In this document: piece after piece, positions 29,029-64,000 of the stretch
Layout: every line of letters begins with the position of its first letter
Numbering within the stretch: the stretch's first letter is position 1
Assembly: GCA_951406725.2 (NCBI GenBank)
Contig: OX597830.1
Coordinates: forward strand, 55,862,001-55,926,000
DNA length: 64,000 nt
Origin: Octopus vulgaris
Lineage: Eukaryota
Reading direction: 5' to 3'
Translations under genes and position numbers: made by a program
Notes under the pieces: generated by a model
Told to the model about the DNA's origin: nothing
Database searches by the model: none
What the model saw: only the letters and a program-made list of their open reading frames with translations

Positions 29029-29068
<40 letters not shown>

Positions 29069-29640: not shown

Positions 29641-29673
<33 letters not shown>

Positions 29674-30229: not shown

Positions 30230-30269
<40 letters not shown>

Positions 30270-30463: not shown

Positions 30464-30503
<40 letters not shown>

Positions 30504-32480: not shown

Positions 32481-32534
32481 GCCTCCTTAACTTTTGTTAT
32501 GGTTCAGAATATAAATGGTTTTCAAAATGTTTAA

Positions 32535-34486: not shown

Positions 34487-34521
<35 letters not shown>

Positions 34522-35988: not shown

Positions 35989-36039
<51 letters not shown>

Positions 36040-36952: not shown

Positions 36953-36991
<39 letters not shown>

Positions 36992-36998
36992 CATAAAC

Positions 36999-37892: not shown

Positions 37893-38064
37893 AACAAAAG
37901 ATCAGTCCTCCGAAAAGGAGAAGCAAAATTCCACCACGGCCGCTACCTTAAACAGTCACTCGCACTGACGGAAATATGCCTTAGTAAAAAAGGAAAAAAA
38001 TTCTTTCGTGCAAATCTGACCCTGATGGACTGACCACATACGATACAGCTAAGGGTCAGACCCG

Positions 38065-38730: not shown

Positions 38731-39015
38731 GTAAAAATGAATTCCTCGCTCTTTCGGGAACATCAATCTTCTGTATTGACTACTTTCCACCACTTTGATC
38801 TGTTTTTTGTATTGAATACGTATCGCCACCGTGGGCCACTGCATCGAACACTTTGAACATATAGCATGAATGAACTTACTTCAAACTATATTTGAACTTT
38901 AAAGATGTCTGACTCCGTTGTGTATTATAAATGAATTTCTTGTGTTTGACGGCATGAACTGTCTTTTTTTATATATAACTCTTTTTGATAAGGTTCATTT
39001 CAGGAACTGAAACAT

Positions 39016-40050: not shown

Positions 40051-40362
40051 TCATGATGATGATATAAAAATTAAAAATTGTATAATATAGCAGCATTTTC
40101 GAACTTCATTTTTTACAAATATATACATACATATATATATACATACATATACACATACATATACATACATATACACATATACATATATATACACATATAT
40201 AGACATATATATATACATACATATATACACATATATATATATATATATACATATACACATATATATACATACATATATATATATATACATACATAGCATG
40301 GCCACAGCTCATTAGCTGAAACTGGAAAAATCAAAATCAAAATCATACATACATATACATAT

Positions 40363-40408
<46 letters not shown>

Positions 40409-40885
40409 GCACACAAACACACATATTTAGATACACAGAGTCACACACACACACACACCCTTTCATTAAAGTGTTTCAAAACTTTTGTGCCATCCCCATA
40501 TCCCCCACCCACTTTTACTTCAAACAGGAATCTTTTCTCATCGAATAGAATTAGTAAAAGTTTTGCACACAACACCAAAGTAACCACACCACACATATAG
40601 TGTGGTGTGCACACTCACACACCACGCACACACACACACACCTACACACAAACACCCTCTTATTACAGAGGTACAGAATTCTGAGGGAACATTTCTGAAA
40701 GAACACATATTCAAGAACAACTAAAGAAGACACACAGTTCTGGAGTAGCTTTGGATTTGATTTGTAAGTTTAATTTAATCCAAGACAAAATTTGCATAAA
40801 CAGAAACAAACAGACAAAAGCAAAAACAAAAAAAAAAAACAAGAAAAAGGAAAAACTCAAATTTTTATACTTAAGTACACACACA

Positions 40886-40942
<57 letters not shown>

Positions 40943-41066
40943 TGTATTTTCTTGAGAATAAGTAGCATCCATAGGTTAATGTTAAATCAAGTATAAAATA
41001 ATACAACTTACACACAACTAACTACAGTATACATACATACACACACACACATATATATATAAATAT

Positions 41067-41099
<33 letters not shown>

Positions 41100-41537
41100 A
41101 TTTTAAAATAGGATAAAATCTTTATAAGAATTTATCAACCTTTACAAAAATTTACTGAATTCATTACTGAGCCGGTGTATATATATATATATATATATAT
41201 ACATACAAGCCCAAAGGCATATAAGAATTGTTTCAAAGTCTAGTTTCATTCCCCCACCACCATCTATAAACAAATCAAAAAAAAAAAAAGGATGGGTACT
41301 AAAACCTTGAAGAAAAGGTGAAGAAAGTAAAATCAGTAAACCAGAAGGACTTAACACTGATTGATACCAGGTAAGAGACATGATCTCTTAAATTATCACA
41401 CCATTAATCTTATATCTGTAAATCTTACATAGTAGTGTTTCATAAATACTGGTTATCTTTTTGCTACTGAGAATCACCCCAACATCCACGTGGGTATAAA
41501 CATGCATATGCAAAGGCACACGCACATAAGAGTCATA

Positions 41538-41583
<46 letters not shown>

Positions 41584-41971
41584 TCCAATCATATTGTTTC
41601 ACTTCAAATATTTCAGTTATCTTATCTAGCAAGCACATGTGTGTGTAGAGGTGGGTAAGTATGCATGCATGGACGAGTGTACCCAAGTACGTGAAGGGGG
41701 AGCATAAATATGTTACAAATAATAAAAGGTATATATGTATGAGTGTGTATATATACATACATACATAGAGAGAGAGAAAGAGAGAGAGAGAGAGATAATG
41801 ATGCAAATAAACAACTGAAACTGCTTGGACTAGCTATACAAAATATACATACATACAAACATGTATGTATACAAACATACATACATATAAATATGTAAAT
41901 AGAGAGGAAATAAAAGCTGAAAATATTCAGATGATGAACACTCATGTATAAATATAATGATATTTATATAT

Positions 41972-42388
41972 TTATTTCTTTACTGCCCATGGGTTGGGGC
42001 TAAACATAGAGGGGGCAAACAACGACAGACAAAGGGATTAAGTCGATTACATAGACCCCAGTGTGTAACTGGTACTTATTTAATCGACCGCAAAAGGATG
42101 AAAGGCAAAGATGACCTCAGTGGAATTTGAACTCAGAGCATAACGACAAAATACCTATTTCTTTACTATTCACAAGGGTCTAAACACAGAGGGGACAAAC
42201 AAGGACAGACAAAGGGATTAAGTCGATTACATCGACCCCAGTGTGTAACTGGTACTTATTTAATCGACCGCAAAAGGATGAAAGGCAAAGATGACCTCAG
42301 TGGAATTTGAACTCAGAACATAGCCAGACAAAATACCACTATGCATTTCACCCGACATGCTAATGATTCTGCCAGCTTGCCGCTCTTA
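41972..42388 (-). mobile_element. SINE family B tandem dimer (180-bp period)
   Basis: 42001-42150 is repeated at 42181-42330. Confidence 0.88.
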
Positions 42389-43146
42389 AGATATTTATAT
42401 ATTAACAGAGCAAGCTTGTACAGAGTACAAAGACACAGAAAATTAAGAGGAGAAAGTATAGCATTACAGGTCCAACAACTGTTTCTGGATTTATTAAATT
42501 ATTTTATAATGTTGGCAGATGTAGTTCACAAAATGTGATGGATATACAACCAATAGTGGAATCATATAAACATTAGTTAGATTCAGCCTATGTCTTCAGG
42601 GTGGAGGGATAGGTATCTCTGTGTCTTTGTACCCTGTGTAAGTTTACTCTGTTAATAAATAAATATCTACATATTTATACATGAATACTCATCATCGGAA
42701 TATTTTCAGTTTTTATTTTCTCTCTGTTTACATGTTTCTATATATGTACCACTCTTTCGTTCTACAGACCTAGTCCTCAGTAAAGATTTTAGAGTGTAAG
42801 TTCAAATCATCTGAACGCTAAGTGTTTGCTATATTGAGTATTTCTGGATCTCATCTGTTGACTAAATATATATACGTTTGTACATATACATACATACACA
42901 TATGCATACATATATACTATACACACACATATATATGCATATATACTTATATATATACAAGACATGTCACTAAAGAAAATTACATTTATTTATAGACATC
43001 TCTATCTATCTATCTATAAACTTTTAATACTTTTGATATAATAATAAAAAATTTTTTTTAAAAAAATAATAATAATAATAATAAAAAATATAAAAAATAA
43101 AAAAATAAATTAATTAATTAAATAATATATAATATATAAAAATATA

Positions 43147-43190
<44 letters not shown>

Positions 43191-43514
43191 ATATATATAT
43201 AAAATTTATAAATTTTGAATAATTTTTTATTTTTAACTTTTATATTTTAAATGAATTTTATGTATTGGCTTATGTTTTTCACTGTTTGATTTGCCTAATA
43301 GTGGTTTTATCTCTAATTTAATATAATATAATATAATATATTTATACTATAAAATTGGATTTAATCCTAAATCTCATTTTTCCCTGTAAGTTTGGATTTA
43401 TTCCCTAATATTATTATAATATATATATATATATATATAAACATAGACATCTCTCTCTCTCATATATGTATGTATATATATATATCTAATATGTGTGTGT
43501 ATGTATGTATTCAC

Positions 43515-43545
<31 letters not shown>

Positions 43546-43894
43546 TATGTATACATATATAAATATACATGCATATACATAAACATACATATATACATAA
43601 ATAAATTAAAATAAAAAATGGAAAAGCAAAACATTCGGCATCACTCAAAAAAACATGTAACTTAGATTGGGAATATAAACATAGTCTCCTACAGCTGTTT
43701 CCTAGAATAGCCAAGCATGCGAATTAGGATATTGAGTAACAATTCCATAAGATCATTTGGAGTGAAATATATGTGTGTTCCATATTACCATAATCGAATA
43801 AATAATAGATTTGTAGGTAAGGTCCATATAAGATAAAGTATGTACATGAGCATCTATGTTTCAAATACAGATACCCAAGCATATATACATATAT

Positions 43895-44665
43895 TCTTTT
43901 ATTCTTTTACTTGTTTCACTCACTTGATTGTGGCCATGCTGAAGCACCGCCTTTAGATGAACAAATAAACTCCAGGACCTATTCTTTGTAAGCTTAGTAC
44001 TTATACTATCGTTCTCTTTTGCTGAACCACTAAGTTACAAGGATGTAAACACACCAGCATCAGTTGTCAAGCGATGGTAGGGAGACAAACACAAACACAT
44101 GCAAACACACACACACATATATATATATACATATATATATGAGGTAAAGACCCCCTTCGGTCATGAATGACCATGGGATTGCACCTAGAAAGTTACCCTC
44201 CTAGACACAAGTCCGGGCAAGGTTGTTTATGGAAGACCAGCAGTCGCCCATGCATACCAGCTTCCCCTCTCCACGCCACCAGTGTTATCCAAGGGAATGA
44301 CAAAGGCCGACACAGCTTGGCACCAGTGACGTTGCAACTCATTTCTACAGCTGAGTGAACTGGAGCAACGTGAAATAAAGTGCCTTGCTCAAGAACACAA
44401 CACGCAGCCCGGTCCGGGATTCGAGCTCACAACCTCACAATTGTAAGCTCGACGCTCTAACCACTGAGCCATGCGCCTTCACATATATATATATATATAT
44501 ACAATGAGCTTCTTTCAGTTTCCATCTACCAAATCCACTCACAAGGCTTTGGTCAGCCCGAGGCTATAGCAGAAGACACTTGCCCAAGGTGCCTCGCAGT
44601 AGGACTGAACCTGGAACCATGTGGTTGGTAAGCGAGCTAACCCTTACCACACAGCCACTCCTGCA
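43895..44665 (-). mobile_element. SINE family A split by a nested SINE
   Basis: The 3' half (43895-44130) and 5' half (44490-44665) flank the family C insertion, which lies in the central TA tract. Confidence 0.8.
44141..44480 (-). mobile_element. tRNA-derived SINE family C (CORE-like domain), full length
   Basis: Minus strand ggcgcaTGGCTCAGTGGttagagcg...gagCTCGAATCCcgg (A and B boxes), then gttcttgagcaaggcactttatttcacgttgctccagttcactcagctg. Related heads at ~46335 and ~58400. Confidence 0.8.
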
Positions 44666-46834
44666 CTTATATATGTGTGTATGTATATAGACACATACAC
44701 ACACACAGATAACACAAAACACTTTATGCTCACCAAAAAACAGGATAGATAGTAGATTGAAAATGCTATATCTCTCCCAAATGAGGAATGTAGGAGGCAA
44801 CGTAGACTAGTGACTAGTGACTTAAGAATAGGAGATGGAAAGCAATGACATAGGACAATTCAGAAAAGGAAGGCATGGAAACTGAAAGGTTTCTTTGTTG
44901 GACATATGTTCAGACAGATCCTTAGTGAAGCATATGCAGTGAGGGAAAAGATAATCATCATCATCATTATTTAACTTCCCCTTTCCATGCTGGTATGGGT
45001 TGGATGGCGACCCGACTGCTTTGGCAAGATTTCTATGGCTGAATGCCCTTCCTAACACCAAACCCGTATATAGACTAACAAGGTACTTGTATGTTAATAA
45101 ATGCACTTTCACACTTTCATACAGTAGACCTGAATTAGCTTAATTACATAATTACATAATCAGTTTACCTAATTGTATAGATAAATAACTGGAACCTCCC
45201 CATCCTTATAAACATCCCACCACACAAGTTACCCACATCACTGTGATACCGCTTGGCCCTTGTATACTCCTTAAAGAGAGATAAATACCAACTTGTGCCT
45301 GTCCATACATATCTTTATCTGAGAGATGAAAACACAACAAACTTACAAGTAACTACACAGGATATCCTAACTTTTGCTTTGATGCTCTCTACAGGCTATC
45401 AGTTGTTTGATAAGCCGTTCATTCAAAAAACACCCATCTACTCTACACACCATTGTGAACTGCATATACATGAAATTATGGACTGCAGATGCAATCAATA
45501 TGCATAAAGGGACAATATAGTCAGAGACTACACTATGTACAAGGAATTCTTGTTGTGAAGTTGACTGGTGTCATTTAGTTGTTTCATTATAATTATATTG
45601 TGTAATCTGATCTAGCTGTAGAAACACTGCCAGATCAGACCGGAGCCTGGTGCAGCCTTCTGGCTTCCCAGATCCCTGGTCTAACCGTCCAACCCATGCT
45701 AGCATGGAGAACGGACGTTAAACGATGATGATGATGATGATGTGATACGTAACATTCTTGTGTCTGTGTGTCCAATTTATCCATGTGTACTTACATGGCT
45801 ACGTATCCACACCCAATTGTATATATGTATGTGCCTATTCTTATACACATATACAGATGTGGAAGTACCTATGTACAGAAATGTGTTAAAGTGTATCAAT
45901 CCACAAAGATGTACCTATGGACATATGTTAATGTGTCTATGTATACATAGCGTGGCTGTGTGGTAAGAAGCTTGCTTCCCAACCACATGGGTCTGGGTTC
46001 AGTCCCACTATTTGGCACCTTATATATATATATATAATTCTTGTGTTGTTGACATTAACAAGTCATCCAAATTGCAGTCCTTTAAGCTCTCAATTTCTTT
46101 TATAAATTCTTCTCTCGACTTTTCTCACTCTTAGAGAACAAGTAATAGTGATTTCTCCTAAGAAGGCCTCTTATTCCTCAATATTCCCACGTTTTTGATG
46201 TCATACAATACTACAATGCACCTACCTTAAATAGGCTCTCACCAATGGGAAATATTCTTAATTTAGCTTTCATTCATTATCTGGCAACTTTTGTTAGTTT
46301 CAGTTACCTGTTAGTCAAAGGTATGAAAGTACACAACCAGTGGTTAAGGTGTTACGCTCACAATTGTACAATCACAGTTTCAATTCCTGAACCAAGTGGT
46401 ATGTTGTGCTCTTGGGCTAAACACATCATCTCATGTTACTCCAGACCACCTAGGTGTGAATGGGTTCCAACAATTCATCCCGCAACAGAATGGCATCCCC
46501 ATTCAGTAGCAGGGGTTTCTCAGTCACTTATATGCCATGGAAACCAATTTGAGTCCTGAGACTTTATGAGTCTCAGGACTCGTGATTGAGCAAAATCTGA
46601 GTCTCACAAAAGTAATTGCTAATTGCCTACGTTCGTTAGATTTTCTCTGTGTAAGTATGTATGTGTGTATGTGTGTGTGTGTGTGTGTGTGTTTTCATCT
46701 GTTAATATATTTGCATAGGCAAAGCATCAAGCTGGCAGAATTAGTTAGCATGCTGAAAGAAATGCTTAGCAGCATTGTGCTTGTCTTCTGAGTTCAAATC
46801 CTGGTGAAGTTGACTTTGCCTTTCATCCTTTTAA

Positions 46835-47055
46835 CCCTTTCATTACCGTATTTATTTTCAGATGCTCTGTGTTTCTTTCAATTATTTTAAATATGACAAA
46901 GAATTTAGAAAAATAACTTAGCTACCATTTAGCTAATGTCAGAAACATAAATTGTGACAAAGGTTTGGTGGAAGATTTTAATTCAAAACTTAAGAAAACA
47001 AGACATTTGTACTAGAGAGCCAGAGGCAGTTTCAGCCGGGTTGATAACGAAAGGG
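46835..47055. mobile_element. piggyBac-type MITE inserted in a family B-like SINE
   Basis: TTAA TSD at 46831 and 47056; TIRs ccctttcattac / ataacgaaaggg. The host SINE resumes gggtcaataaaataa. Confidence 0.82.
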
Positions 47056-47498
47056 TTAAGGGTCAATAAAATAATTACCAGTTGAATACTGATGTCGATG
47101 TAACCGACTTAACCTCTCCCTAAAATTGCTGGCCCTGTGCCAAAATCTATAACCGATATATTTATACGGGCATACGTGTGCAAATATGTCTAAATACAGG
47201 TGTGCGTGTGTATAAGTGTTTTTGAGACATGCTTACATGTTCATATGAGTTTGTGGGTGGGTGTATGTGTGAACGTATGTACACATTTATGGGATAAGCA
47301 AATGTGTGTATGAGCATTAATACATTGTATATTTCTTTTGTATCTCTGTGTCCAACTTACTTGCAAACAACTCCTATACGTATGTATATATATATATATA
47401 TATAAAAGTACAAAGTGAGATAGAGGTTATGAGTGATGATTGAAAGAAATTTATTCCTCTATTTTCTTATTTTGTATTTATATATATATATATTTATG

Positions 47499-47530
<32 letters not shown>

Positions 47531-48588
47531 TACACACAGATATATATATATATATATACAAATCAACATCAGTGGAAATTGCAGCTGTGGTTAAGCGAAC
47601 CATCCGATCGTTTGTCCGTTGCCAGCCTCACCTGGCCCCCATGCTGGTAGCACGTAAAAGTACCATCTGTTCGTGTTCATTGCCAGCCTCGCCTGGCCCC
47701 CGTGCCGGTGGCACGTAAAAACACCATCCGTTCGTGGCCGTTTGCCAGCTCTGTCTGGCACCTGTGCAGGTGGCACGTAAAAAGCACCCACTACACTCAG
47801 GAGCGGTTGGCATTAGGAAGGGCATCCAGCCATAGAAACACTGCCAAATCTGACTGGGCCTGATGAAGCCTTCCGGCTTCACAGACCCCAGTTAAACCAT
47901 CCAACCCATGCTAGCATGGAAAACGGACGCTAAATGATGATGATGATGATGATACACATACAAACACAGATATATATATATTTGCATTTAAACACAATAA
48001 TATACCCCCGAAATGGCCATAGGGAATTTAGTAAATATGGTTTCCTCTTTTTTAACTATAAGGCCTCTCTTATTCGATAAGTAATTTTATAAGACTTTCT
48101 AAACGATGAACCTTTATTTTATTTTACATTATATATTATATATTTTTATTTGATTCCTCTATTTATATATTTTTATATACCTATATATTTATATATTACT
48201 TTATACTATATTTTTACGTCTTACCTTCTAGGTGTTGTAATGGTTTTTTTTTTTTTAAATATATTTTTCTTAATCGCTAAAGTATTAACTTTTTACCGTG
48301 ATGAACTGTAATCACATATATTCAAACATTTTTTCTCGCACTTTCTTATATGCTTGTATAGATGAATTATATTCCATCTTCCGTGATGTCTAAATGTATA
48401 TTCTATGATTAAATGTTCGAGTTATGAAATGTTATTGGATGACCTTGCATTTGTTTGTTTATTAACTTTAGTTTGATATTTGCATATATACATACATATG
48501 CATGTATATATACATATAGATACATAAATAGACATAAATATATGCATGTATATACGCATACATGTGTGTGTGCATGTACATATATATA

Positions 48589-49442
48589 TAGGGTGCAATG
48601 AGTAAATTGCTGCCATTACACATCTTTAATTTCATGCTTCCACATTGTTTTTGATTTTGCTGACTACACAGTATAGTAGGGTCAGTTGGGCACCATCTGT
48701 GAAAAAAACAGTACCATAATGCAATTCACTCAGCCATTTAGAACAACATACTGTACTGCTGGGCAGTTGTGCCAGAAGCTCCAATAAGAACATTTCAGAG
48801 TGTCTGGGTGTCAATCTGAGGACATGTACCGAGAGTGATAAAAATCAAACATCCAGTCAACATCATAGTGTTTGGAGTGACCACTAGTGATGATGTTATG
48901 CCTCTATTCATCTTCCCACACAGCCTCAGACTCAACATGGAGGCCCACATCAAGTGCCTGGAGGAGATAGTGCTGCTCTGGGTCAAGAGGGTGGCTACCG
49001 GAAGACTCTATGTCTGGCAACTGGACTCTGCACCATGCGACACAAGCAGGAGAACCTAGTCATGGCTGTCAGACAATTTCTGCAACCACATCACCCCTAA
49101 CATCTGGCCACCCAACTCCCCAGACTCCAACCCCCTTGATTATTAAGTGTAGGATGCAGTTCAGTGAGAGACCAACAAAACTCCTTGTAACACCAAAGAT
49201 GAATTGAAGGCAAGGATTATGGTAGCATTCACCAACTTAAACAAGGAGACCATCCAGAAGAGTTTCCAAAATTGTCTGGAGACCTTGGTTGAAGCCAATG
49301 GTGATTTTATTGAAAAAATGTTTCTTTAATATTTCAAGATTTTTTATGTAATATATATTTTGTAAATATATCTGTTAAAATGAGATGTCAGTGTTAGTTT
49401 CATTTTTGCATAATTTAGACAGTTTATTCACTGCAACCTGTA
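48589..49442 (+). mobile_element. DD37D (maT) internally deleted element with both TIRs
   Basis: KHPVNIIVFGVTTSDDVMPLFIFP...WQLDSAPCDTSRR...WPPNSPDSNPLDY. TIRs agggtgcaatgagtaaatt / agtttattcactgcaacctg, TA flanks. Confidence 0.85.
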
Positions 49443-49933
49443 TATAAGAGAAAATGAGATGACAAAGAAATAAACTATTATCATATGAACTTCATAAGCT
49501 TAAAGCTGTATCTGCTATAAGATGCAGTGAACTCATAGTTGAGTAAATGAGTTACATAAGGTACTACTCAGACACTCAACTATGGGATACACCTAGGGAT
49601 AGGGGGATACACCAGACTCCAGTCTGATTTGGCATGGTGGGTGCCCTTCCTAATGTCAACCACATTACAGAGTGTGCTGGATGCTTTTGTGTGGCACTGC
49701 ATGGGCACTTTTACGTGTCGCCACACAGGAGCTTTTACATGCCGCTGCACAGGCACTTCTAAGTGGGACTACACAGGCGCTTTTACATGGCACCGCCATG
49801 AGTGCTTTACACCACCCGAGGATAAGTCTCAACACTTCTGCTGCAGGGTATAGGGTACGGGTCTTCTTGAATACAGCCAGGTACCAGGTATCTCGAGCTT
49901 GCCTGAAAGGTTCAGCTTCCTGAGATTATTCTT

Positions 49934-49982
<49 letters not shown>

Positions 49983-50461
49983 GAAGAACAAACACAATAA
50001 AACAACAACGCGAGGACATGGCACATGTAAAGTATTAGCAGACGCTCGGAGAAGGAAAGAAAGTTGAAATTTATAGAAAAACAAAAGACAAAGACGGGTG
50101 TATGAACAACAAGCAAGTGTATTAGTTTGACGCTCAAGAAAATGGAAAAGTCTTTTATGGTTTGAGCCTATGTTCTTCAACAGAAAGGAATCAGAGAAAA
50201 TTAAATGTAGGTGGCACGTAAAAAGCACCCACTACACTTATGGAGTGGTTGGCGTTACAAAGGGCATCCAGCTGTAGAAACACTGCCAGATCAGACTGGT
50301 GCAGCCTCCTGGCTTCTCAGACCGAGGTCGAACCGTCCAACCCATGCTAGCATGGAAAGCGGACGTTAAATGATGACGATGAAAACAGAGAGAATAAAAA
50401 AACTTGTAGATATCAGCAATCCAGCATGGTGAATGATATATATCATTTAACATCCATCTCT

Positions 50462-50516
<55 letters not shown>

Positions 50517-51129
50517 ATACAATTTGTTACAAACCTCAGCGAAAGGAATTTTTCATTTCAATAGAGATGGTAAACTAAAGAGTCAAAGGTTTAAGAAAGA
50601 ACATAAGCACACTGATCAGTGGACAGGTAGGTGAATGGAAAAGCTAGGAAAGGAGTGGAGAAGGAAATAAAATAAATTTTTAAATTGATGTGAATGTTTA
50701 TTAGATATAGGTCACTCTAAGGTTAAGCTAAAGACAATAGCTTAGTGTAGTTCCGGCTAGCTTGTAAATGGATGGAATTTTACAACGTTTTTATTCTAAA
50801 GCAGTGCAAAAAGTCACATTGAATTTATGTGAGAAAAATTAACTTCCAAAATAAGTTTGCATGTGCATGTGTACTTGTGTGTGTAGATGCCAGGTTTTTA
50901 AATAAATATATGTCTGCTGACAGAAGGAAAAGGCTACTATAAGTTTCATCAACATCATAATCATCATCATCATTTAATGTCCATTTTCCATGCTGGCATG
51001 GGTTAAGTGGTTTGACAGGAGTTGGCCATGCTCTAATTTTCTGTTTTGGCATGGTTTCTATGGCTGGATGCCATTCCTAATGTCAACGCCACTTTACAGA
51101 GTGTACAGGGTGCTTGTTATGAGACACTG

Positions 51130-51510
51130 GCATTGGGGCATTTTACATTGCACCGACACAGGTGCTTTTTATATGACCCCAAACGAGTGCTTTTCTGTAC
51201 AGCACTGGTACAGATGCTTTTTACATGGCACCAACACAGGTGCCTTTGACATGGCACCAACACAGGTACTTTTTGTGTGGCACCAACACAGGTGCCTTTT
51301 ACTTGGCACCAACACAGTTGTTTTTTACATGGCACCAACATAGGTGCTTTCTATGTGGCACCAACACAGATGTCTTTTATGTGACACCAACACAGTTGTT
51401 TTTTACATGGCACCAACATAGGTGCTTTCTATGTAACACCAACACAGATGTGTTTTACGAGGCAATGACATGGGTTCTTTTTACATGGCACCAGCACAGG
51501 TGCTTTTTAC
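51130..51510. repeat. ~26-bp minisatellite expanded inside an RTE-tail copy
   Basis: Roughly 14 units of tttttacatggcaccaacacaggtgc. Shorter expansions at ~49690-49800 and ~57340-57460. Confidence 0.8.
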
Positions 51511-51710
51511 TATAAGTTTATATCTATAAATTCTCTGTAGGTGCACACATGGCTGCATGGTTAAGGAGTTAGTGTTGCAACCATGTGGTTTCAGGTTTAG
51601 TCCAACTGCATGCCACCATGAGCAAGTGTCTTCTACTATAGTTCCCGACTGGCCAATGCCTTCTGAGTGAATTTGATAGACAGAAACCATGCGGAAGCCA
51701 ACCAGGTGTA

Positions 51711-51772
<62 letters not shown>

Positions 51773-51923
51773 CGCGTGCGTGAGGTAAGAAGCTTGCCTC
51801 CCAACCACATGGTTCCAGGTTCAGTCCCACTGTGTGACCCCTTGGCAAGTGTCTTCTACTATGACCTTGGGCTGACCAAAGTCTTGTGAGTGGATTTGAT
51901 AGATAGAAACTGAAAGAAGCCTG

Positions 51924-51971
<48 letters not shown>

Positions 51972-53054
51972 TCTCTCTCTCCATGATAAGTTAACAACCT
52001 GTAACAGAACATGAGTACTGAACTTTTTTTTTAATGAAAAATAAAAAAAAAACCTTTGTGCTCAGGTAATTTATTGAGAATGTTTCAGATGATTATAAAT
52101 TGAATTTTGGAAACAGAGAAAAACAAAAAAGAGAGAGAGTGAGAGTGAAAGAGAGATAACAGTGAAAAATATGTGTTGACTCTTACTAGATTCAACACGT
52201 TTACTGGTCTACTGTTACATACTGATAAATAGCTTATCAGCGACAATGTTACTAATGTACCGAGGGCAAAATTACTAATTGTTCATAGTGTCAAATAACT
52301 GATAAATTTCTCAGAAACAAACACGCAAAAAAACATCCATAAATTTTAGTACACAGGAAAATGTGTAAATTATGGTGGATTTGTTAATCATCATCATCAT
52401 TTAACGTCCGCTTTCCATGCTAGCATGGGTTGGACGATTTGACTGAGGGCTGGCGAACCAGACTCCAATCTGATCTGGCAGAGTTTCTACAGCTGAATGC
52501 CCTTCCGAAGGCCAATATAAAAACAAAATAAATCTTTTGTCATTTAACTTTCACTTGCTTCAGTCATTGGACTGCAGTCATTCTGGACACTGCCTCAAAG
52601 AGTTTAGTGGAATAAATCATCCCTGGTTCCTTTTCTTTTTCTTAAGTCTGGTTCTTATTCAGTCAGTCTCTTTTGCCAAATCCCTAATTTACAGGGATAC
52701 AAACAAAGTAACATGAGCTATAAAGCAGTATTGGAAGACAAACTCAAACACACACACACACACAATGACAGGCTTCCACAATGTTTCCATCAACCAAATT
52801 AACTGACAAAGCAGTGATCAGTCTGGAGTTATACATGCCTACATGGGAACAGCTTGCTTGAGATTACTCACTGTGGAATAATGTTGCACCGTCTGAACGT
52901 GGCAGATGCCAGCGCTGCCTGACTGGCATCCATGTCGGAGACACGTAAAAGCACCAACCGATCATGGCCGTTTGCCAGTCTCCTCTGGCCCTTGTGCCGG
53001 TGGCGTGTAAAAAGCACCAACCAATCGTGGCCGTGGCAAAGTTAGTCATTGTGG

Positions 53055-53494
53055 TGAATTTGAACTCAGAAAATATATTTCTTTACTACCCACAAGGGGC
53101 TAAACACAGAGGGGACAAACAAGGACAGACAAAGGGATTAAGTCGATTACATTGACCCCAGTGCGTAACTGGTACTTAATTTATCAACCCCGAAAGGATG
53201 AAAGGCAAAATCGACCTCGGCGGAATTTGAACTCAGAACGTAGCGGCAGACGAAATACCTATTTCTTTACTACCCACAAGGGGCTAAACACAGAGGGGAC
53301 AAACAATGACAGACAAAGGGATTAAGTCGATTACATCGACCCCAGTGCGTAACTGGTAGTTAATTTATTGACCCCGAAAGGATGAAAGGCAAAGTCGACC
53401 TCGGCGGAATTTGAACTCAGAACGTAACAGCAGACGAAATACGGCTACGCAGCATTTCGCCAGGCATGCTAACGTTTCTGCCAGCTCGCCGCCT
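53055..53494 (-). mobile_element. SINE family B tandem multimer
   Basis: Two complete ~184-bp units joined at gacgaaatac|ctatttctttactacc. Further family B copies at ~54820-55210, 56955-57182 and 59468-59693. Confidence 0.88.
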
Positions 53495-54048
53495 TCCAAC
53501 TCAGAAAATAAAGAGACATAACCACATCCTGTGAAACAGTGTATTGTTTAACACGATGAACAGATGTACTGACTATTTATTTTTACATTATTGTACTGAC
53601 CCTGTTACAAGGTTATATCTGTGATGTTTTGCCTTCAGGTTTCATGCATACATAATTCTGTGACATTCAAGTCACAACTACACATCATAACTTTTGTAAT
53701 AAACCTGATAGTAACTTAAGCAAATAAACAATGCAAATGAATAATAATAATAACAGTTTCTTTTGTTTGTCATCGTAGCATCAGGAGAGAGGATCATTAC
53801 AGGGACAGTTTATAATTTGTGTGGAGGGTTACATAAAAGATAGGGGGGAAAGGAGGGGGGTGCAGAGATGAAATAAAAAGTAAACATAATATACAAAGTC
53901 TGTGAATACATGAATGATGCAATTCTCCAGATACAGGAGAACCTCCAACAAAGACCAATCAATGAAACCTACAGAACCAGGATCACCCTGACCACCAAAG
54001 GCATGGGCCCTCACCCAACTGTTGTACTTCAATCTACAAGTGCATGCC

Positions 54049-54079
<31 letters not shown>

Positions 54080-55814
54080 GATGATGATGATAACAGTTTC
54101 AAATTTTGTCACAAGGCCAGCAATGTCGAGGGGAGAGGATAAGTCAATTAGATTGACTCGTGCTCAACTGGTACTTATTTTTATCAACTTCAAAAAGATG
54201 AAAGGCAAAACTGACCTCGGCAGAATAATTCACCTCAGGAAACATGGGTGTTTTGTTCGTAGACCTTTTGAGTGGGATGAGCTACTTGACCAGAAGAAAA
54301 TTCTAACTGGATCCCACTTGCAAGGTCATGCATAGTTTATCTTGATATAAGATCACCATGTCATACACATATGGTTGTGATGTAACTCTAATTTCGAGGG
54401 GAGGGAAAAATCAACTACATTAATCCCAGTATTTGACTAGTATTTTATTTTACCACTCCCAAAAGGATGAAAGCCGAACCTGATGCCAATGAGATTTGAA
54501 CTCAGAACATAGAGCCAAAAGAAGTGCCACAGAAAATGTTGGCTGATGCATTCATGATTCTTGCCAACTCGCTATCTAATAGCAAAAATAAATTTTAAAT
54601 TCTGGCACAAACTTAGCAACTGGGGGTAAGTCAATTATATCGACCCCAGTGCTCAATGCTATTTATTTTATCAACCCCACCAAAAGGATGAAAGTCAAGT
54701 TGACCTCAGCAGAATTTGAACCCAGAATGTAAAGAATCTGAAGAAATGCAGCCAAGCATTTTGTCCAATGCACTAATGCCAACTCACCACCAAATAATAA
54801 TAATAATAATAATACTTTCTACTATAGGTACAAGGCCTGAAATTTGGGGGAGTGGGGACAGTTAATTACATCGACCTAAGTACACAATTGCTACTTATTT
54901 TATCCACCCCGAAAGAGTGAAAGGCAAAGTCAACCTCGGCAGAATTTGAACTCAGAACATAGCGATGGGAGAAATACCTATTTCTTTACTACCCACAAGA
55001 GGCTAAACACAGAGAGGACAAACAAGGACAGAAAAACGGATTAAGTCGATTATATCGACCCAAGTGCGTAACTGGTACTTAATTTATCGACCCCAAAAGA
55101 ATGAAAGGCAAAGTCGACCTCGGCGGAATTTGAACTCAGAACGTAATGGCAGACAAAATACGACTACGCATTTCGCCCGGTGTGCTAACGTTTCTGCCAG
55201 CTTGCCACCTAATCTTTTCTACAATAGGAAACAGGGCCTGAAATTTTGGACGGATAGGCATAATCAATTACATCAATCCCAGCATGCAACTGGTACTTAT
55301 TTCACTGACCCACCGAAAGGACGAAGAGCAAAGTTGGTCTTGGCAGAATTTAAATTCAGAATGTAAAACTGGACAAAATGCTGCTAAGTATTTTTCCCAG
55401 AAATGCTAATAATAATAATAATGATGATGATGATTACTTTTATTTGCCACCAGGGTGAAAGATGAGTGGGGACAGACAACAAGACAGATATAAAGTGTGG
55501 GAGTTTACACAGAATAAAACGATAAAAAGAAAAAAAAAAATAATAATAATAATAATAATATTCTCCACCACACTCTATTGTTGCTTTATCCACACAGAAA
55601 ATATCTTTTATTTCATTTCTATCTATTTTTTTTTTTTTTTTACTTTTTATTTATTTAAATATTTTCACTCTTTAACCGAGAACTCATGAAAGTAAAATAT
55701 GAGAATATCTTTAGAGTGTTTTGTCATTTCAGTATTGACATTTGTGAGGTAATCCTGTCAGGAGCACAGCCTATTGTTGTTGTTGTTGTTGTTGTGATTG
55801 TTCTCCTTTTACAC

Positions 55815-55846
<32 letters not shown>

Positions 55847-55856
55847 CATTATTATT

Positions 55857-55891
<35 letters not shown>

Positions 55892-56184
55892 TATGTTACC
55901 ATCATCCTTGTTATTACAACTATCTGATGTCAGGTATATTACATAATAGGAATGTGTACTTTAAATTCATTGTAGTAGTGGTGAGGTTTCTTTAACAATT
56001 TTCTATTCACCTACTTTTGAGAACCAATGTTTATTTTCCCAATAAACATCCCAGCATAGTTCTTAAACTGATTTGATCTCTTTCTTTTCAAAGACCGAAT
56101 CAAATTTACATATATTTATGGGTGGGGTGTATGTATCTATACATATATATGTGTATGTGTGGTCTATATATGCATGCATATGTG

Positions 56185-56230
<46 letters not shown>

Positions 56231-56263
56231 AATACATGCATATATATATATATATATATATAT

Positions 56264-56294
<31 letters not shown>

Positions 56295-56465
56295 GGTATA
56301 TTAACTGTATGGTAAGAGGCTTGCTTCCCAACCACATGATTCCGGGTTCACTCCCACTGCATAGTACATTGGGCAATTGTTTCTACTATAGCCTCAGGCC
56401 AACCAGAACCTTGTAAGTGGATTTCATTGACAGAAACTGAAAGAAACCCATTGTATATATGTGTG

Positions 56466-56512
<47 letters not shown>

Positions 56513-56738
56513 TTCTATTCTTTTACTTGTTTCAGTCATTTGACTGCGACCATGCTAGAGCACCACCTTAAAGAATTTATGCTGAATAAATCAACCCCAG
56601 GACTTATTCATTGTAAGCCTGGTACTTATTCTATCAGTGTCTTTATCTGAACTGCTAGATTGAAGGGAACATAAACACACCAACATCAGTTATCAAACAA
56701 TGCTGGGGTAACACAGACAGAAAGACACTCACACATAA

Positions 56739-56779
<41 letters not shown>

Positions 56780-57194
56780 ACAAGCTTCTTTCAGTTTCCA
56801 TCTACCAAATCTACTCACAAGGCTTTGGTCAGCCAAAAGCTACTGTAGAAGACACTTGTGTAAGGCACCACACAATGGGACCTAACCCAGAACCCAGTGG
56901 GTGGGAAGCAAGCTTCTTACCACACAGCCATGCCTGTGCCTATATATACATATACCTATTTCTATTTCTTTACTACCCACAAGGGGCTAAACACAGAGAG
57001 GACAAACAAGGACAGACAGACGGATTAAGTCGAGTATATCGACCCCAGTGCGTAACTGCGACCCCGAAAGGATGAAAGGCAAAGTCGACCTCGGCGGAAT
57101 TTGACCTCAGAACGTAGTGGCAGACGAAATACCGCTGAGCATTTCGCCCAGAGTGCTAATGATTCTGCCAGCTCGCCGCCTTATATATACATAT

Positions 57195-57710
57195 ACCATC
57201 ATCCTTATTTAATGTCAGCTTTCCATGCTGGCAAAGGTTGGACAGTTTCAGATGAAGCTGGCCAGCTGGGAACTGTCCAAACTCCAACTGTCTGTTGTGG
57301 CATGGATGCCATTCTTAATGCCAGCCACTTAATAGTATGTGGGGTACCCTTTATGTGCCAGTGGCACAAGTGCATTTGCACAGCACTGGCACAGGTGCAT
57401 TTAAGTAGCACTGGCATGGGTGCATTTACGCAGCACTAGCACAGGTGCTTTTTATGTGACATCAGCATCTGAAAGGACAAGCCTGTACATATGGAAGACA
57501 CCAATTTTACTTGACACACCTTTTCAAGTACAGCAAATCCCCACATCTCCCAGTCCCTTGTCATTTCCTCAGTGAGGTCCAGTGTCCAAAGTTCTTTTCT
57601 CACAACTCCATCCCACATCTTCCTGAATCTACCCCTTCCATAGGTACCCTTCACAATTAGAGCTAAGCACTTATTTATGCAGTTGACCTCAACCATACGC
57701 ATCCAGAACC
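57195..57710 (-). mobile_element. Degraded RTE LINE 3' end
   Basis: ORF 57436-57702: KCLALIVKGTYGRGRFRKMWDGVVRKELWTLDLTEEMTRDWEMW, homologous to 39023-39451. Confidence 0.85.
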
Positions 57711-58037
57711 ACGTAAGAAGACCATTACCTCCTGTCTAAAGACTTTTATTAAAACAACCACCTCTTAACTATATAAATACAGCTGTCTCCAGAAACACAT
57801 ATTAAGATCAACTCCTGGCAAAAAAGTTTCTTATACAGCCCTTTAGCATTCACATTATTCTGTCAAATGTAATGCTTATTTATTTACATTGTTTTAAATT
57901 AATCCTGCATTATCTCATAGCTTTGAGATTTCAAATCCTTGTTGCTTATTTTGATTATAATCACCCCATTTGATTTATATGGATAATACCATACCAAATT
58001 CTGGTGCCTTTAACTTAAGTACCATATTCATCTGAAC

Positions 58038-58096
<59 letters not shown>

Positions 58097-60054
58097 CACA
58101 CACATATATATATATGTATGTAAATATGTATATGTGTGTGTGTGTGTGTGTGTATATATGTATGCATATTGTATATCTATACACACACATATGTTTATGT
58201 GCACAATAGTATATACATGTCATATGTTTCGTGCACATATTTTTATTAACTATAACATACATTTGTCCGCTTGATAATTTCCCCCCTGTTTTAAAGTGTT
58301 CTTTAAATGTACAAGTGTGTTTTGTATTATCGTTAACTATTTCTTTTATAAACTTTGTGCTTGAAGGTAAAATAAAATTACAATAAACAAATTTGAGTGA
58401 AGACGCGTGGCCTAGTGGTTACGGGATTGCACTCATGAGTGCAAAAATCATGGTTTCAATTCCCATACCGGGTAGTGCATTGTGTTCTTGGACAAAACAC
58501 TTCATTTCATGTTGTTCCATTCCACTGAGCTAAAAAAAATGAGTAACGTTGTAAAAGACTGGTGCTCCATTCAGGGTGGATATTTCCTCATCTTTTGAAC
58601 AACAAATGACTCATTGCTGAGACATAATTTCATGGAGGATTGTAAACAAATGACAGTGATTTTAACTGACCTTTGTTTACAGTCAGCACGTACAAGTCAA
58701 GACAAAGGAAATACACAAACACGCACATGCATGCCTCTAATCTGAAACGAGTTAGTCTGGCCATAAAATACTACCTCAAGTAATTAACCCATTCCATGCT
58801 AATATGGAAAAGCAAACATTAAATGAACATATATTTATAAAGTATGTGTGTGCATAAATATATGAAAGGCTTCTTCTTGTTTCTATCTAATAAATTTCAC
58901 TCACACGGCACTGGTCAACTCACAGCTACAATAAAAGATAGCAGTTGATAGTATCAACATACTGAGAATTAACTCTTAAGCCACATGGTTCCAAAGTGAA
59001 CTTTATAACCCGACAGCCATATATACAATCATCATCATCATCATTTAACATCCACTCTTCTATGATTGCATGGATTAGATGGAATTCACTGAGGTAGACT
59101 TTTTTTGTGGTTGGACGCCCTTCCTGTCACCAACCCTCACCTGTTTCCAAGCATGGCAATATTTCCTCATTACCTGAGATGTTTTGCATGAAAGACTGGA
59201 AGTGAAAAACACTTGTATGATACTGATGTGCATTTGCAATTATTACATGATGTCAAGACAAGGGTACACACAAACACAAACACACATATATATACATATA
59301 CATGATGGGTTTCTCAAACCCGCTTGGAATGCTTTGGTTAATCCGAGGGCTGTTGTAGAAGATATTTGCCTAAGGTGCTACACAGTGGAACTGAACTTGA
59401 GACCACATGGCTGGGAAGCAAGCTCCTCAGCCACACAGCCATACCTACATGGTTTGGATATTTTTTTTTCCTTTACTACCCACAAGGGGCTAAACATAGA
59501 AGGGACAAACAAGGACAGACAAAGGGATTAAGTCAATAACATCGACCCCAGTGCGTAACTGGTACTTTATTTATCGACCCTGAAAGGATGAAAGGCAAAG
59601 TCGACCTCAGCGGAATTTGAACTCAGAACGTAACGACAGACGAAATACTGTTAAGCATTTCGCCTGGCGTGCTGTCTCTGCCAGCTCACCGCTGGTGTGG
59701 ATATAATTTAACCCTTTAGCATTTAAACCAGCTATATATCCAACCCAAATATTCTACCTGTTTTATATTCAAACTGGCCAGATTGAACCTCTCACACTTA
59801 CCTACAATGCCATTCTAAAAATGAACAGTCACATCATCAAAATCTTGAATTCATGAGATAATGCATGATTAATTCAAAACAACATAAATAAACAAACATT
59901 ACATTTAACAAAGTAATTTGAATGCTAAAATGTTAATCTAAGTCACAAATTGACCTGATTATGCACATAACTAAAAAAACAAGAGGACAATACAGACTAA
60001 TCTGAAACACTTAACTAGATTTAAATCTTCCAATTACAGAAATGTACTAACATA

Positions 60055-60365
60055 AAAGGCACCAATCAAGTGTGATCGTTACCAGTGTCGTCTTATTGGC
60101 ACCTGTGCCGGTGGCATGTGTAAAAAGATTCGAGCGAGGTCATTGCCAGTACCACCTGACTGGGCCCGTGCCAGTGGCACATAAAAGCACCCACTACGCT
60201 CTTGGAGTGGTTGGCGTTAGGAAGGGCATCCAGCTGTAGAAACTCTGCCAGATCGAGATTGGAGCCAGGTGCAGCTATCTGGTTCACCAGCCCTCAGTCA
60301 AAATCGTCCAACCCATGCTAGCATGGAAAGCGGACGTTAAACGATGATGATGATGATGATGATGA
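60055..60365 (+). mobile_element. RTE 3'-UTR tail copy (representative of >20 in the window)
   Basis: aaaagcacccactac..tcttggagtggttggcgttaggaagggcatccagctgtagaa...ccaacccatgctagcatggaaagcggacgttaaac(gat)n. Other copies at e.g. 8500-8740, 12050-12272, 19935-20245(-), 21125-21430, 26350-26760, 33490-33740, 47560-47953, 50210-50380 and 61130-61580(-). Confidence 0.85.
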
Positions 60366-62448
60366 AGGTGTACATAGGAGCCAATAATCAAGTATCGTTA
60401 CTATACAATAAGAAAATGGGTAGTTGGAATTAGTTACAAAAGTTTCTCAAGCGTAGTAAATTTCCATTTAATAAAAATGAGAATGTGTGTTAAGAGCGAT
60501 TTGAAGACAGTGGTGGGTTATTTAATAAATTTGCTTTTGTAGAACACCTGTTGTGATATGAAAAATGTAAAAAGTTGTCTGCATTAGTCACATGTTACAT
60601 AAATCTAGTTTGAGGTCTTGGGGTGAAATAAAGGCTCAAAGAAAGTAGTTTAATCCTTTTCTTGCCAACTTGATCTTATGTTACCAACCAACATATATTA
60701 TGTATTCATATCTAGATTAATAAATCTATGTAAAGCATGTGTCTACCTAATGATAACACTTGATTTTATATAACACTTGTCCAATGCTGTCTGACATTCT
60801 TAAAACATAATTCTTCTGTTCATCAATTTTTCTTGGTGGGCTGTTTTCCCTTTTTCCTTTACAAAATTCTTGTTTAAAAACAAACGCTAAATTTCAGCTT
60901 GATCACTGATTTTTAAATCACTGTTGCTAGTGTTCATTTTTAATGGCTATATTAACTGAAAATTGAAACACAACCACAAGCTTCACTGAATAAAACACCA
61001 ATTTCTAACAAACAAACAAAAAAATATTGGAATAGTGAAAGTAATAATGGATCAACACTAGAGAAAGAAAAGTAAAAAGACTTAGTGTTGTTGACTGATT
61101 TAAATCCTTATTGCTTACTTTGATTTATTTATCATCATCCTCATCATTTAACGTCTGTTTTTCCATGCTAGCATGGGTTGGACGGTTCGACCGGGGTCTG
61201 AGAAGCCAGGAGGCTGCACTAGGCTCCAGTCTGATCTGGCAGTGTTTCTACAGTTGGATGCCCTTCCTAACGCCAACCACTCCGTGAGTGTAGTGGGTGC
61301 TTTTTACGTGCCACCAGCACAGGTGCCAGGCGAGGCTGGCAACAGCCATGATTGGTTGGTGCATTTTACGTGCCACCGGCACTGGCATCGGCCACATTCA
61401 GATGGTACTTTTTACGTGCCACCGGCACAGGGATCACAACTACAATTTCCATTGATTTTTGATGTTGATGTACTTGACTCAATAGGTCTCCTCAAGCACA
61501 GGGTCGAAACAAGTGTTTCTTTACTTGCCACCTGCACAGGAGTCAGTCCAGCAGCACTGGCAACGGCCAGGTGCCAGTTATAAGATTTGGTTCCTCAATG
61601 CAAATATTCCACGCAATCACTGATAGTGATGTTAGCTATACAGAGAAGACTAATTAAGGGCTTGTACATGCTTGGATAATTTCAGACCCTCCTTACTCAA
61701 TATATCTAATGAGGGGCATTTAGAAGCTACCAAGGATTATCAACTGTACAAGGGACATGTGAGTTGTATTAAAGCTACAAAACACAAAAGGAATGGTAAA
61801 GTAATAAAGGCCAGAAGTGTTTCTGGCAATAGTTATAATGTATATATTTGTGTATTTGTTTCTGTGTTTGTCCCCGCACCATCGCTTGACAACCGATCTT
61901 GGTTTGTTTATGTCCCCATAACTTAGCGGTTCAGCAAAAGAAACCGATAGAATAAGTACTAGGCTTGCAAAGAATAAGTCCTAGGGTCAATTTGTTCAAC
62001 TAAAGGTGGCACTCCAGCATAGTTGCAGTCAAATAAGTGAAACAAGTAATATATATATACTAGCAGTATAACCCAGCCTTGCCCAGGATTAAGTTACGAT
62101 TATTAAGCTAATCAAGTTTTATTTCAAACCAAACTAAGTAATATTGACATCAAATTTGGGTGAAATCCATTGAAATTGGTTTATATATATTGCATATGTT
62201 TTTTGCCAAATAAACTCATGCACTATATATTTGTTCTTCACTCATTTATTGCTGTTCTTATTGTAATTCATGTCCATTGTCCGGAAATCTTTCGTCACAC
62301 ACCTGTGACCTCTTCGATAACACTTTTCATCTTTGTGTGTGCTCTTGCTCCACTTATTTCATTCTGCTCTTCAATTCATATAACTGTATATTATTTTTCA
62401 ACTAATTTGATTTTTTTTTTTTTCCAGCAGATACCATTCTACAGAAAA

Positions 62449-64000
62449 ATGTTGCAACATTTACTGATTGTTACTTGGCTGTTTGGTGCTACATTAACAT
62501 CGTATGCTTTGAATTATTCACCAGACTCTATCAACTTGAACTGCTTCAACTGTACCTACAGCAATGTCACCTTCTTTCAACTGTCATATAATAATATTTC
62601 CTCTATTTCAATTACTAACAACAATATGCTGCAACTAAATTTCAATCAAAACCAAAATGATTCCATACTTATCAACCTCGGGTCGATGCCCAATCTTCAA
62701 GGACTAAATGTATCCAACAACAAGTTGTTAGATTTTCCTTACAGTTTACTCAGCTACCCAAAATGGCAAACACTAGATATCAGTTCCAATGGAATTATTT
62801 ATCTAACCAAGCCAATAGTAACAAACAGCCTACATCTACATCTACAAAATAACCAAATACAGGAACTTTCTGACAGCCTTTTCCAGGATTCTCCAAATCT
62901 GGAAATACTGGACTTGTCTAATAACAAATTAAAACAGATCAAACTGGAAACATTTAGCAATCTAAAAAATCTTTCAAGTTTGAATTTATCAAAAAATCAA
63001 ATTCAAACAATTTATGGCCCCTTGTCCCTTTCTAAGCTCAACAGTTTGGATCTGTCTGAAAATTTAATCCAAGCCCTATCAAAAAACATGTTCAGTGAAG
63101 TCCCGTTAAACCTTAATGAACTTGACCTCAGTCATAATAAACTGACTGAGATTTCGTCAGATGCTTTCATTCAACTTTTATCATTGAAAGATTTTTCTCT
63201 ACAAGGAAACAATATAACAAAATCTATAAACTCTCTCCGTTTGCCGTACCATTTGATAAACTTCGACTTGAGTAACTGTTCACTACAGGAAATTGATCAG
63301 TGCAAATTCCAAAATCTAAAAGACATCCAAAATTTAAACATTGAGCATAATTCTCTGCTTTGTAACTGTCATTTGAATTCAATTATAAACATGTATGGTT
63401 CTTCAGTTCACATCAAGACCTGCAGGAATTCCAGCGAAGAGATAGACAAAGCACTCATTAATAGTTTGGAATTAAATTGCAAGCCCCAAACTTGTAACAA
63501 CTGGAATCCAAATATCAACTCTGATGCTTCTTCCAATTTGAATGTTAGCACCGAAATTGAGAAAGGCCGGGTGAGAATTAAGTGGATGACAAGTTTGATA
63601 GTGAATCAGTTCCATGTTTCAATCAAAGACTCGTCAGAAAATCAGTTAGAGGACATTACACTGAAATACGAACATGAATATTCGTTTGATACTGACTCCG
63701 CATTTGTCACGTACCACATATGTGTCAACGCTCTGGACAGAGACGACGACGTCATTTCAAAAAAATGTATCAGTGTTTTCATGAAGGATGCAAACATGAT
63801 AACAGGAATTGTGGCAGGGTTATTAGCATTGATACCTTGTGTTTTTGGATTAATTTATGTCACGTGTAAAGATCGGAACTACCACAGACTAAACAGCAAT
63901 ATGCAGACCATTACAAAACCAGTACAGAAATCTGATCTTCAGCAAACTAATGACAAGAAGGTACCAGCTAAACTGGCAGCACCACAAGGAAATCACAATC
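62449..64000 (+). CDS. Single-pass type I LRR + FN3-like membrane protein (partial, runs off the window)
   Basis: Hand translation from ATG 62449 shows no stop to the window end (517 codons). Signal peptide MLQHLLIVTWLFGATLTSYA; ~11 LxxLxLxxN repeats (e.g. LQGLNVSNNKL, LEILDLSNNKL, LSSLNLSKNQI, LNELDLSHNKL); LRRCT NSLLCNCHL; FN3-like segment (VRIKW...YHICVNAL); TM MITGIVAGLLALIPCVFGLIYVTC. Preceded by a poly-T + CAGCAG acceptor at 62411-62430. Confidence 0.93.
   Translation, partial: MLQHLLIVTWLFGATLTSYALNYSPDSINLNCFNCTYSNVTFFQLSYNNISSISITNNNMLQLNFNQNQNDSILINLGSMPNLQGLNVSNNKLLDFPYSLLSYPKWQTLDISSNGIIYLTKPIVTNSLHLHLQNNQIQELSDSLFQDSPNLEILDLSNNKLKQIKLETFSNLKNLSSLNLSKNQIQTIYGPLSLSKLNSLDLSENLIQALSKNMFSEVPLNLNELDLSHNKLTEISSDAFIQLLSLKDFSLQGNNITKSINSLRLPYHLINFDLSNCSLQEIDQCKFQNLKDIQNLNIEHNSLLCNCHLNSIINMYGSSVHIKTCRNSSEEIDKALINSLELNCKPQTCNNWNPNINSDASSNLNVSTEIEKGRVRIKWMTSLIVNQFHVSIKDSSENQLEDITLKYEHEYSFDTDSAFVTYHICVNALDRDDDVISKKCISVFMKDANMITGIVAGLLALIPCVFGLIYVTCKDRNYHRLNSNMQTITKPVQKSDLQQTNDKKVPAKLAAPQGNHN

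Follow-up and report, generated by a model that had tools for sequence, protein, structure and literature searches.

The combination of leucine-rich repeats (LRRs), a membrane-proximal FN3 domain and a single transmembrane (TM) segment is known from the vertebrate FLRTs. In the cited accounts, FLRT1-3 are described with LRRs, an LRRCT cap, one membrane-proximal FN3 domain, a single TM segment and a short non-catalytic tail (PMC7527468; PMC5502089), and FLRTs are reported in vertebrates only (PMC10084454). Several vertebrate LRR-TM genes are nested in unrelated hosts, namely LRRTM1-3 in CTNNA, LRRN3 in IMMP2L, LRTM1 in CACNA2D3, LRRC4 in SND1, and LRFN4 in PC (PMC3933685; PMC3565204). According to the passages cited, these genes keep almost their entire coding sequence in a single exon and lie within a large intron of the host, on its other strand (PMC3933685; PMC3565204), and single-coding-exon nested genes are presumed there to be products of retrotransposition (PMC3933685). 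Here, we analyzed 64,000 nucleotides (nt) of Octopus vulgaris DNA (assembly GCA_951406725.2, contig OX597830.1, positions 55,862,001 to 55,926,000; hereafter the window, with features beyond its end given in window-equivalent coordinates), in which a gene coding for an LRR-FN3-TM protein (the LRR gene) lies in an intron of DHX38.

The LRR gene has the same arrangement as the vertebrate cases, with a single coding exon that runs antisense to a large intron of an unrelated host. It differs from them in that the host is a housekeeping gene of splicing that codes for a DEAH helicase and the lineage is invertebrate, and the nesting is known from this genome alone. The gene is a transcribed, single-copy octopus member of a mollusc-wide LRR-FN3 family, and we consider it probable that it codes for an FLRT-like adhesion or co-receptor protein. 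Neither this architecture nor antisense nesting is new in kind, and the family is apparently unstudied.

Gene structure and transcripts

An earlier note on the window, made from the letters alone, had reported an open reading frame (ORF) of at least 517 amino acids (aa) without an in-window stop. This frame was recovered, with 517 aa up to the window edge and 556 aa in the whole protein. It starts at the ATG at 62449 and ends at a stop at window-equivalent 64117-64119, 119 nt beyond the window. The start proposed for the element, 62411, falls in a polypyrimidine tract, while the exon itself is real and begins behind the acceptor, at 62428 (Table 1). Similarly, the description "all on one exon" applies to the coding sequence and not to the transcript, into which an upstream exon is spliced. 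The 5' untranslated region (UTR) inside the coding exon is 21 nt long (62428 to the coding sequence at 62449). Longer readings of 610-633 aa from upstream TTG or ATG codons were rejected, as they cross the intron upstream of the used acceptor, and the orthologues begin with MLQH or MLRH. One copy of the gene was found in this genome, where 2 of 17 candidates matched and the second match contained 6 stops. Other octopus LRR loci often have long open frames too (34 matches, frames of 242-2015 aa). The gene is also not "hidden", as had been supposed, for the O. bimaculoides protein XP_014783182.1, 92% identical, is annotated, and a protein differing at 2 residues is present in NCBI/UniRef.

Both the LRR gene and DHX38 are transcribed. 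The transcript evidence came from four runs of four studies (4 of the 24 runs listed), whose contigs were aligned to window-equivalent 58600-68500 and are uninformative on strand, level and tissue. A single contig joined two DHX38 exons without the 1.06-kb intron between them in all four runs, which are therefore RNA, and the same contigs went on past the host-intron donor in sequence not matching the stretch (4/4 runs). The contigs of the LRR gene started at the acceptor, 62428, in every run (2 nt earlier in one), and three of the four runs had contigs with 23-59 extra 5' letters that were unmatched in 58600-62427. An upstream exon therefore exists. At the other end, the main contigs reached about 64.4-64.6 kb and small pieces 64.9 kb, so that the 3' UTR extends to about 64.4-64.9 kb, more than 2 kb short of the DHX38 donor.

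The 5' exon was sought in the host intron by repeat mapping, by a promoter candidate and by donor sites, and was not located there; several donor-like sites in locally unique stretches are candidates for it, with no ranking among them. The promoter candidate, a GC-rich element at 34960-35360, was rejected because it proved to be a repeat with dispersed copies: of 936 candidates scored, 40 gave 46 matches. The matches to this repeat are mostly 79-93% identical, and it carries promoter-like motifs, two of GCGCATGCG and one of AAGATGGCG, which we take to be NRF1- and YY1-like.

Seven coding differences between the runs and the reference were observed in the coding exon (L035:4741-5443), including 5 that change an amino acid (3 in the tail) and 2 that are silent. 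The runs cover two organisms, and the differences are alleles or species differences, with no editing implied.

Position within DHX38

The coding exon and 3' UTR of the LRR gene are nested antisense inside a DHX38 intron. The earlier note had estimated this intron at more than 46.7 kb, had found no preceding DHX38 exon in 17281-64000, and had named that exon and an assembly break as the points to be checked. The exon is indeed absent from this interval and sits 3 kb beyond the window. It was placed by a Pfam HA2_N search, at window-equivalent 67081-67245 on the minus strand (MVEFPLDP...CSAEIL), with a GT donor at 67080. The residues ...CSAEIL join VIVSMLSVP (17280) in frame, giving an intron of 49,800 nt (17281-67080) in phase 0, and zero N were present across 264 kb around the locus. 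DHX38 extends from about 96.6 kb window-equivalent to a point ahead of the first window position. Apart from the host intron, the introns mapped in it measure about 0.5-7.8 kb (upstream boundaries approximate), and the host intron is about 6 times the next largest. The entire LRR gene, 5' exon included, may be nested in the host intron.

The nesting most likely goes back to an intron-poor gene that was inserted into the DHX38 intron, and the host intron would then have been enlarged by transposons and by the guest gene's own 5' intron. At least 57% of the host intron matches repeats, as determined from about 300 kb of local sequence and nine other loci. No functional link between the LRR gene and DHX38 is implied by the nesting. 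The genomic context of the family was also sought in metagenomes, where none was found.

Table 1. Features of the LRR gene and of its host DHX38 (window positions; residue numbers refer to the octopus LRR protein)
Feature	Position	Strand	Basis
Single coding exon, LRR-FN3-TM gene	62428..64000, continuing to stop 64119	+	frame, transcripts
Polypyrimidine tract and AG acceptor	62410..62427	+	sequence, contig ends
Predicted signal peptide, about residues 1-21	62449..62511	+	hydrophobicity (Kyte-Doolittle, KD, about 1.2), start common to orthologues
Ten canonical LRRs, about residues 81-300	62689..63348	+	AlphaFold model, Pfam, alignment
LRRCT cap, C305 C307 C325 C344 C349	63349..63498	+	alignment
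Predicted FN3-like beta-sandwich, residues 360-445	63526..63783	+	model, family profile, structural neighbours
TM helix, residues 449-475, G-I-x-A-G-x3-L-x-P-C...D	63793..63873	+	alignment
Start of 80-aa tail	63874..64000	+	N517-Q-G-F at window edge, C-terminal T-Y-L beyond window
In-window part of DHX38 host intron	17281..64000	-	donor at window-equivalent 67080
DHX38 exon after host intron (VIVSMLSVP...WKRNG)	17132..17280	-	
Next DHX38 exon (YSANWCNEHFIHIKAMRK)	9324..9378	-	
Following DHX38 exon (...QAARLK)	5446..5580	-	

Domain architecture and conserved positions

The predicted signal peptide and the LRRCT, FN3-like domain, TM segment and sequons that had been read from the sequence were borne out by Pfam, an AlphaFold model, the family alignment and hydrophobicity. 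The number of LRRs, previously given as about 11, comes to 10 regular repeats, with one degenerate repeat ahead of them. Pfam LRR_8 matched the protein with E=5e-29. The AlphaFold model, built from a 7-sequence alignment (mean pLDDT 63.5), has 10 evenly spaced LRR strands at 85-297 and one degenerate strand at 52-54. These are followed by a 7-strand beta-sandwich (364-444) and a helix (448-482), and the tail is modelled without structure. The N-cap ahead of the LRRs is reduced to two Cys (C32, C35), and 12 N-x-S/T sequons precede the TM. The fold and the type I topology are predictions.

Judged from profiles and models, the sandwich domain before the TM is FN3-like. The family FN3+TM profile matches the true fn3 domains of the proteins P0253 and P0238, and hhalign gave a probability of 97% across LRRCT-FN3 against P0253, an arthropod-type LRR-FN3 protein. 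In addition, the structural neighbours of the sandwich include many FN3 domains (Z about 6). A Pfam scan of the octopus protein itself gave no FN3 match, and Pfam fn3 was found below the cut-off in 2 of 8 family members (best E 5e-4). Foldseek returned no match at E<=0.001 for a single-sequence FN3 model and generic LRR matches only for the full model. A homodimer prediction for FN3+TM, run without an alignment, scored 0.01, a value that speaks neither for nor against a dimer. No TIR domain was detected by Pfam in any family member scanned whole. Likewise, Pfam matched no Ig domain in the family, and in the model there is room for one beta-sandwich only between LRRCT and TM.

In the family alignment, an invariant P-x-H precedes the last repeats, six cysteines (C285 and the five of LRRCT) are shared by all 8 members compared, and W379 of the beta-sandwich is invariant. 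C425 and C440, which lie on the last two strands of the sandwich in the model, are invariant in 12 of 12 members. The TM is the most conserved region, with 37-48% identity to gastropods and P0126 versus 15-33% for the other, ectodomain regions, and its G-I-x-A-G, Pro and following Asp are invariant in all 15 aligned members. The tails are otherwise unalignable, with an [ST]-x-hydrophobic end in 11/16 and N-x-[GAS]-[FY] in 12/16; in a shuffle control of these motifs (5000 shuffles), the counts averaged 0.6 and 0.9 and never exceeded 4 and 5. By sequence, the tail ends match the type I PDZ-binding motif, and N-x-x-F/Y resembles the NxxY SNX17 signal, as these are defined in the cited account (PMC9006456).

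A family of mollusc LRR-FN3 proteins

Full-length relatives were found in 14 named species of three classes, all molluscs, and in six further clusters without a species name. The members come from O. bimaculoides, Argonauta hians, four Haliotis, Gigantopelta, Lottia, Patella, three Mytilus, Potamilus and Sinanodonta, and the records include XP_014783182.1, XP_009065503.1 and XP_071175919.1 (full-length orthologues or close homologues). The suggestion of a cephalopod-specific gene is contradicted by the gastropod and bivalve members. The alternative suggestion, a mollusc-specific gene, fits all 14 named species, with the six unnamed clusters and the limited searches leaving it less certain. The first homology search gave 741 matches among 7978 candidates, just the top few being full-length. 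A profile search of 1.84 billion proteins gave 7 family members among the 150 matches listed, long LRR proteins prevailing, and a C-terminal profile search with 7995 candidates scored missed several known members. Because the searches were swamped by generic LRR proteins or limited in candidates, the absence of the family outside molluscs is weak evidence.

The tree included 18 family members (near-duplicates excluded) and 4 LRR-FN3 outgroups, with no full-length FLRT. The family formed one clade (98/98), in which cephalopods (100/100) and gastropods (89/89) were grouped and the bivalves fell in two groups. The ectodomain of the octopus protein is 50% identical to that of Argonauta and 24-25% to gastropods and P0126. 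In gastropods the N-cap is complete and the repeats are more numerous, and Mytilus-type members have fewer repeats. Compared with gastropods, the octopod members have lost the four-cysteine N-cap and some of the repeats. The database names of the members are automatic and conflict with each other (internalin I, LRRN3-like, LRIG2, let-4-like and TLR6).

Some members stand apart. P0278 and P0279 are strongly diverged and lack a clear tail motif, and the family would predate molluscs should the two prove to be from other animals. The Sinanodonta proteins P0277 and P0295 are near-identical and their locus numbers are two apart, representing a local duplication in a family that is otherwise mostly single-copy.

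A literature search under six family accessions and the Lottia gene number found nothing. Similarly, no study of this family or of the LRR-DHX38 gene pair was found by title or abstract, though supplementary expression tables may list the gene under another identifier.

Comparison with known receptors

The resemblance to FLRT/ELFN-type proteins put forward in the earlier note stands for the layout, LRR+FN3+TM without Ig being FLRT-like; the ELFN-type FN3 (PF22986) was not matched in any of 8 members at E<=1. A further likeness to FLRTs is the Cys pair on the F and G strands, given in the cited account as a feature of FLRT FN3 that is rare among FN3 domains (PMC5502089); the octopus C425/C440 are the same. 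FLRTs differ in having ten LRRs and two Cys-rich caps, whereas the octopus N-cap is reduced and the repeat number varies across the family. Binding of Unc5, latrophilin or FGFR is a further mark of FLRTs. Since this pattern is not shared and the sequence searches showed no preference for FLRT, the LRR protein is not to be classed as an FLRT, although by analogy of architecture it may work like one. In the ESM features, the Lottia member was nearest to the artichoke, FLRT1-3 and TRIL clusters (0.95-0.97), and in another comparison FLRT was level with many other LRR proteins.

Toll-like receptors have a cytoplasmic TIR domain, while the octopus protein has an 80-aa tail that is modelled as unstructured, without TIR. 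LRIG, the name given to several members, has Ig domains after the LRRs, for which the family gave no match. TRIL, ELFN1/2 and LRRN4 have LRR+FN3+TM without Ig as here, but orthology to them is unsupported. The best FN3-region match outside the family among 295 proteins was an arthropod-type "artichoke" LRR-LRRCT-FN3 protein (Bemisia P0253, E 2.5e-7). Artichoke-type proteins differ in their length of 1300-1400 aa and far more LRRs, and they fall outside the mollusc clade.

Proposed function and alternatives

As an FLRT-like adhesion or co-receptor protein, the LRR protein might act as follows. The glycosylated LRR arc would bind a partner in trans, either in the matrix or on an adjacent cell, while the FN3 stalk, stabilised by its disulfide, could pack together with the conserved TM helix against a membrane partner of the same cell. 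The enzyme-less tail may be anchored to a PDZ scaffold via T-Y-L, and the N-x-x-F/Y in the tail may serve in endosomal recycling of the protein. We infer all of these steps.

Several observations weigh against this interpretation. The mechanism is read from the architecture. FLRT was absent from the best 60 of 387 PDB matches to the full-length profile, and also from the best 60 of 153 PDB matches to the Lottia protein. The Z-scores from VIA were obtained with a single-sequence model and are only middling. The tail patterns were picked after the alignment had been seen and the sequences are related, so that the shuffle control overstates their significance; moreover, the octopus tail motif ends in F where the canonical residue is Y. 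In the tree, the bivalves are not one clade and two JGI proteins sit on a long branch. The fast evolution of the ectodomain also suits an immune or recognition role. Finally, the 5' exon is unplaced and no contig directly covers the junction of the two DHX38 exons that flank the host intron, so nesting has been extended to the whole gene only by inference.

The fast divergence of the ectodomain is one of the features that would be expected of a TIR-less innate immune co-receptor, TRIL-like, presenting a ligand to a Toll-like receptor, for which we assume RP105 to be a further likeness. The lack of a TIR domain, the TRIL clusters close to the Lottia member in features and structure, and the automatic name "toll-like receptor 6" in Argonauta point the same way. 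However, the gene is single-copy here, there is mostly one cluster per named species and the tree largely follows mollusc class, unlike in expanding immune families; the conserved PDZ-type end points to scaffold anchoring, and the automatic names contradict each other. We therefore regard an immune role as possible but rather unlikely. Somewhat less likely still is the role of an auxiliary subunit whose TM helix would modulate a channel or receptor, presumably in the manner of LRRC26-type and AMIGO proteins. It would explain why the TM is the best conserved region, with G-I-x-A-G, Pro and the following Asp invariant in 15/15, but TM segments are compositionally constrained in any case, no partner is known, and a large glycosylated ectodomain with FN3 suits adhesion.

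The intronless coding sequence and the repeat-rich host intron could also suggest a dead retrocopy or an ORF arisen by chance, or that the apparent nesting is an artefact of the assembly. This is very improbable, and for the ORF already excluded, in view of the intact 556-aa frame, the orthologues in three classes, the spliced transcripts in four studies, the lack of another intact genomic copy, and a locus with zero N whose flanking DHX38 exons are in frame. At the other extreme, the family might be the true invertebrate counterpart of the vertebrate FLRTs, either as their orthologue or as a neural adhesion receptor that arose convergently. It would then have been remodelled in octopods and convergently nested in a housekeeping gene, like many LRR receptors of vertebrates, an idea that we consider a long shot. 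If it were true as orthology, the origin of FLRTs would be pushed back to the bilaterian ancestor, and the octopod remodelling would consist of the loss of the N-terminal cap and several repeats.

Under the preferred interpretation of an FLRT-like adhesion or co-receptor protein, the present data define a family of mollusc receptors that is mostly single-copy, misnamed in databases and apparently unstudied, with the PDZ-type end, N-x-x-F/Y and the conserved TM as testable motifs. Because FLRTs are reported only in vertebrates, the family is a reasonable candidate for a part in the wiring of cephalopod nervous systems like that of FLRTs. In addition, the nesting of LRR-TM genes in unrelated hosts, a pattern described from vertebrates, gains an invertebrate case.

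Neighbouring features

Transposon-derived frames on the plus strand were observed in the DHX38 introns. The host intron contains a 319-aa frame at 36933-37892 with a GIY-YIG domain (E 9e-6), likely a fragment of a Penelope-like retroelement. Two related frames without a Pfam match, at 22712-23221 and 39011-39451, look to us like the ends of long interspersed nuclear element (LINE) reverse transcriptases. Another DHX38 intron contains a DDE_3 transposase fragment at 10628-11128 (E 9e-8).

Beyond the window, a multi-exon LRR gene without an evident signal peptide (L014-L015) lies on the plus strand at about 97.3-106 kb window-equivalent, and we presume that it resembles LRRC69. This gene starts head-to-head with DHX38, whose start codon (about 96.6 kb) is about 0.7 kb away, suggesting a promoter common to both.

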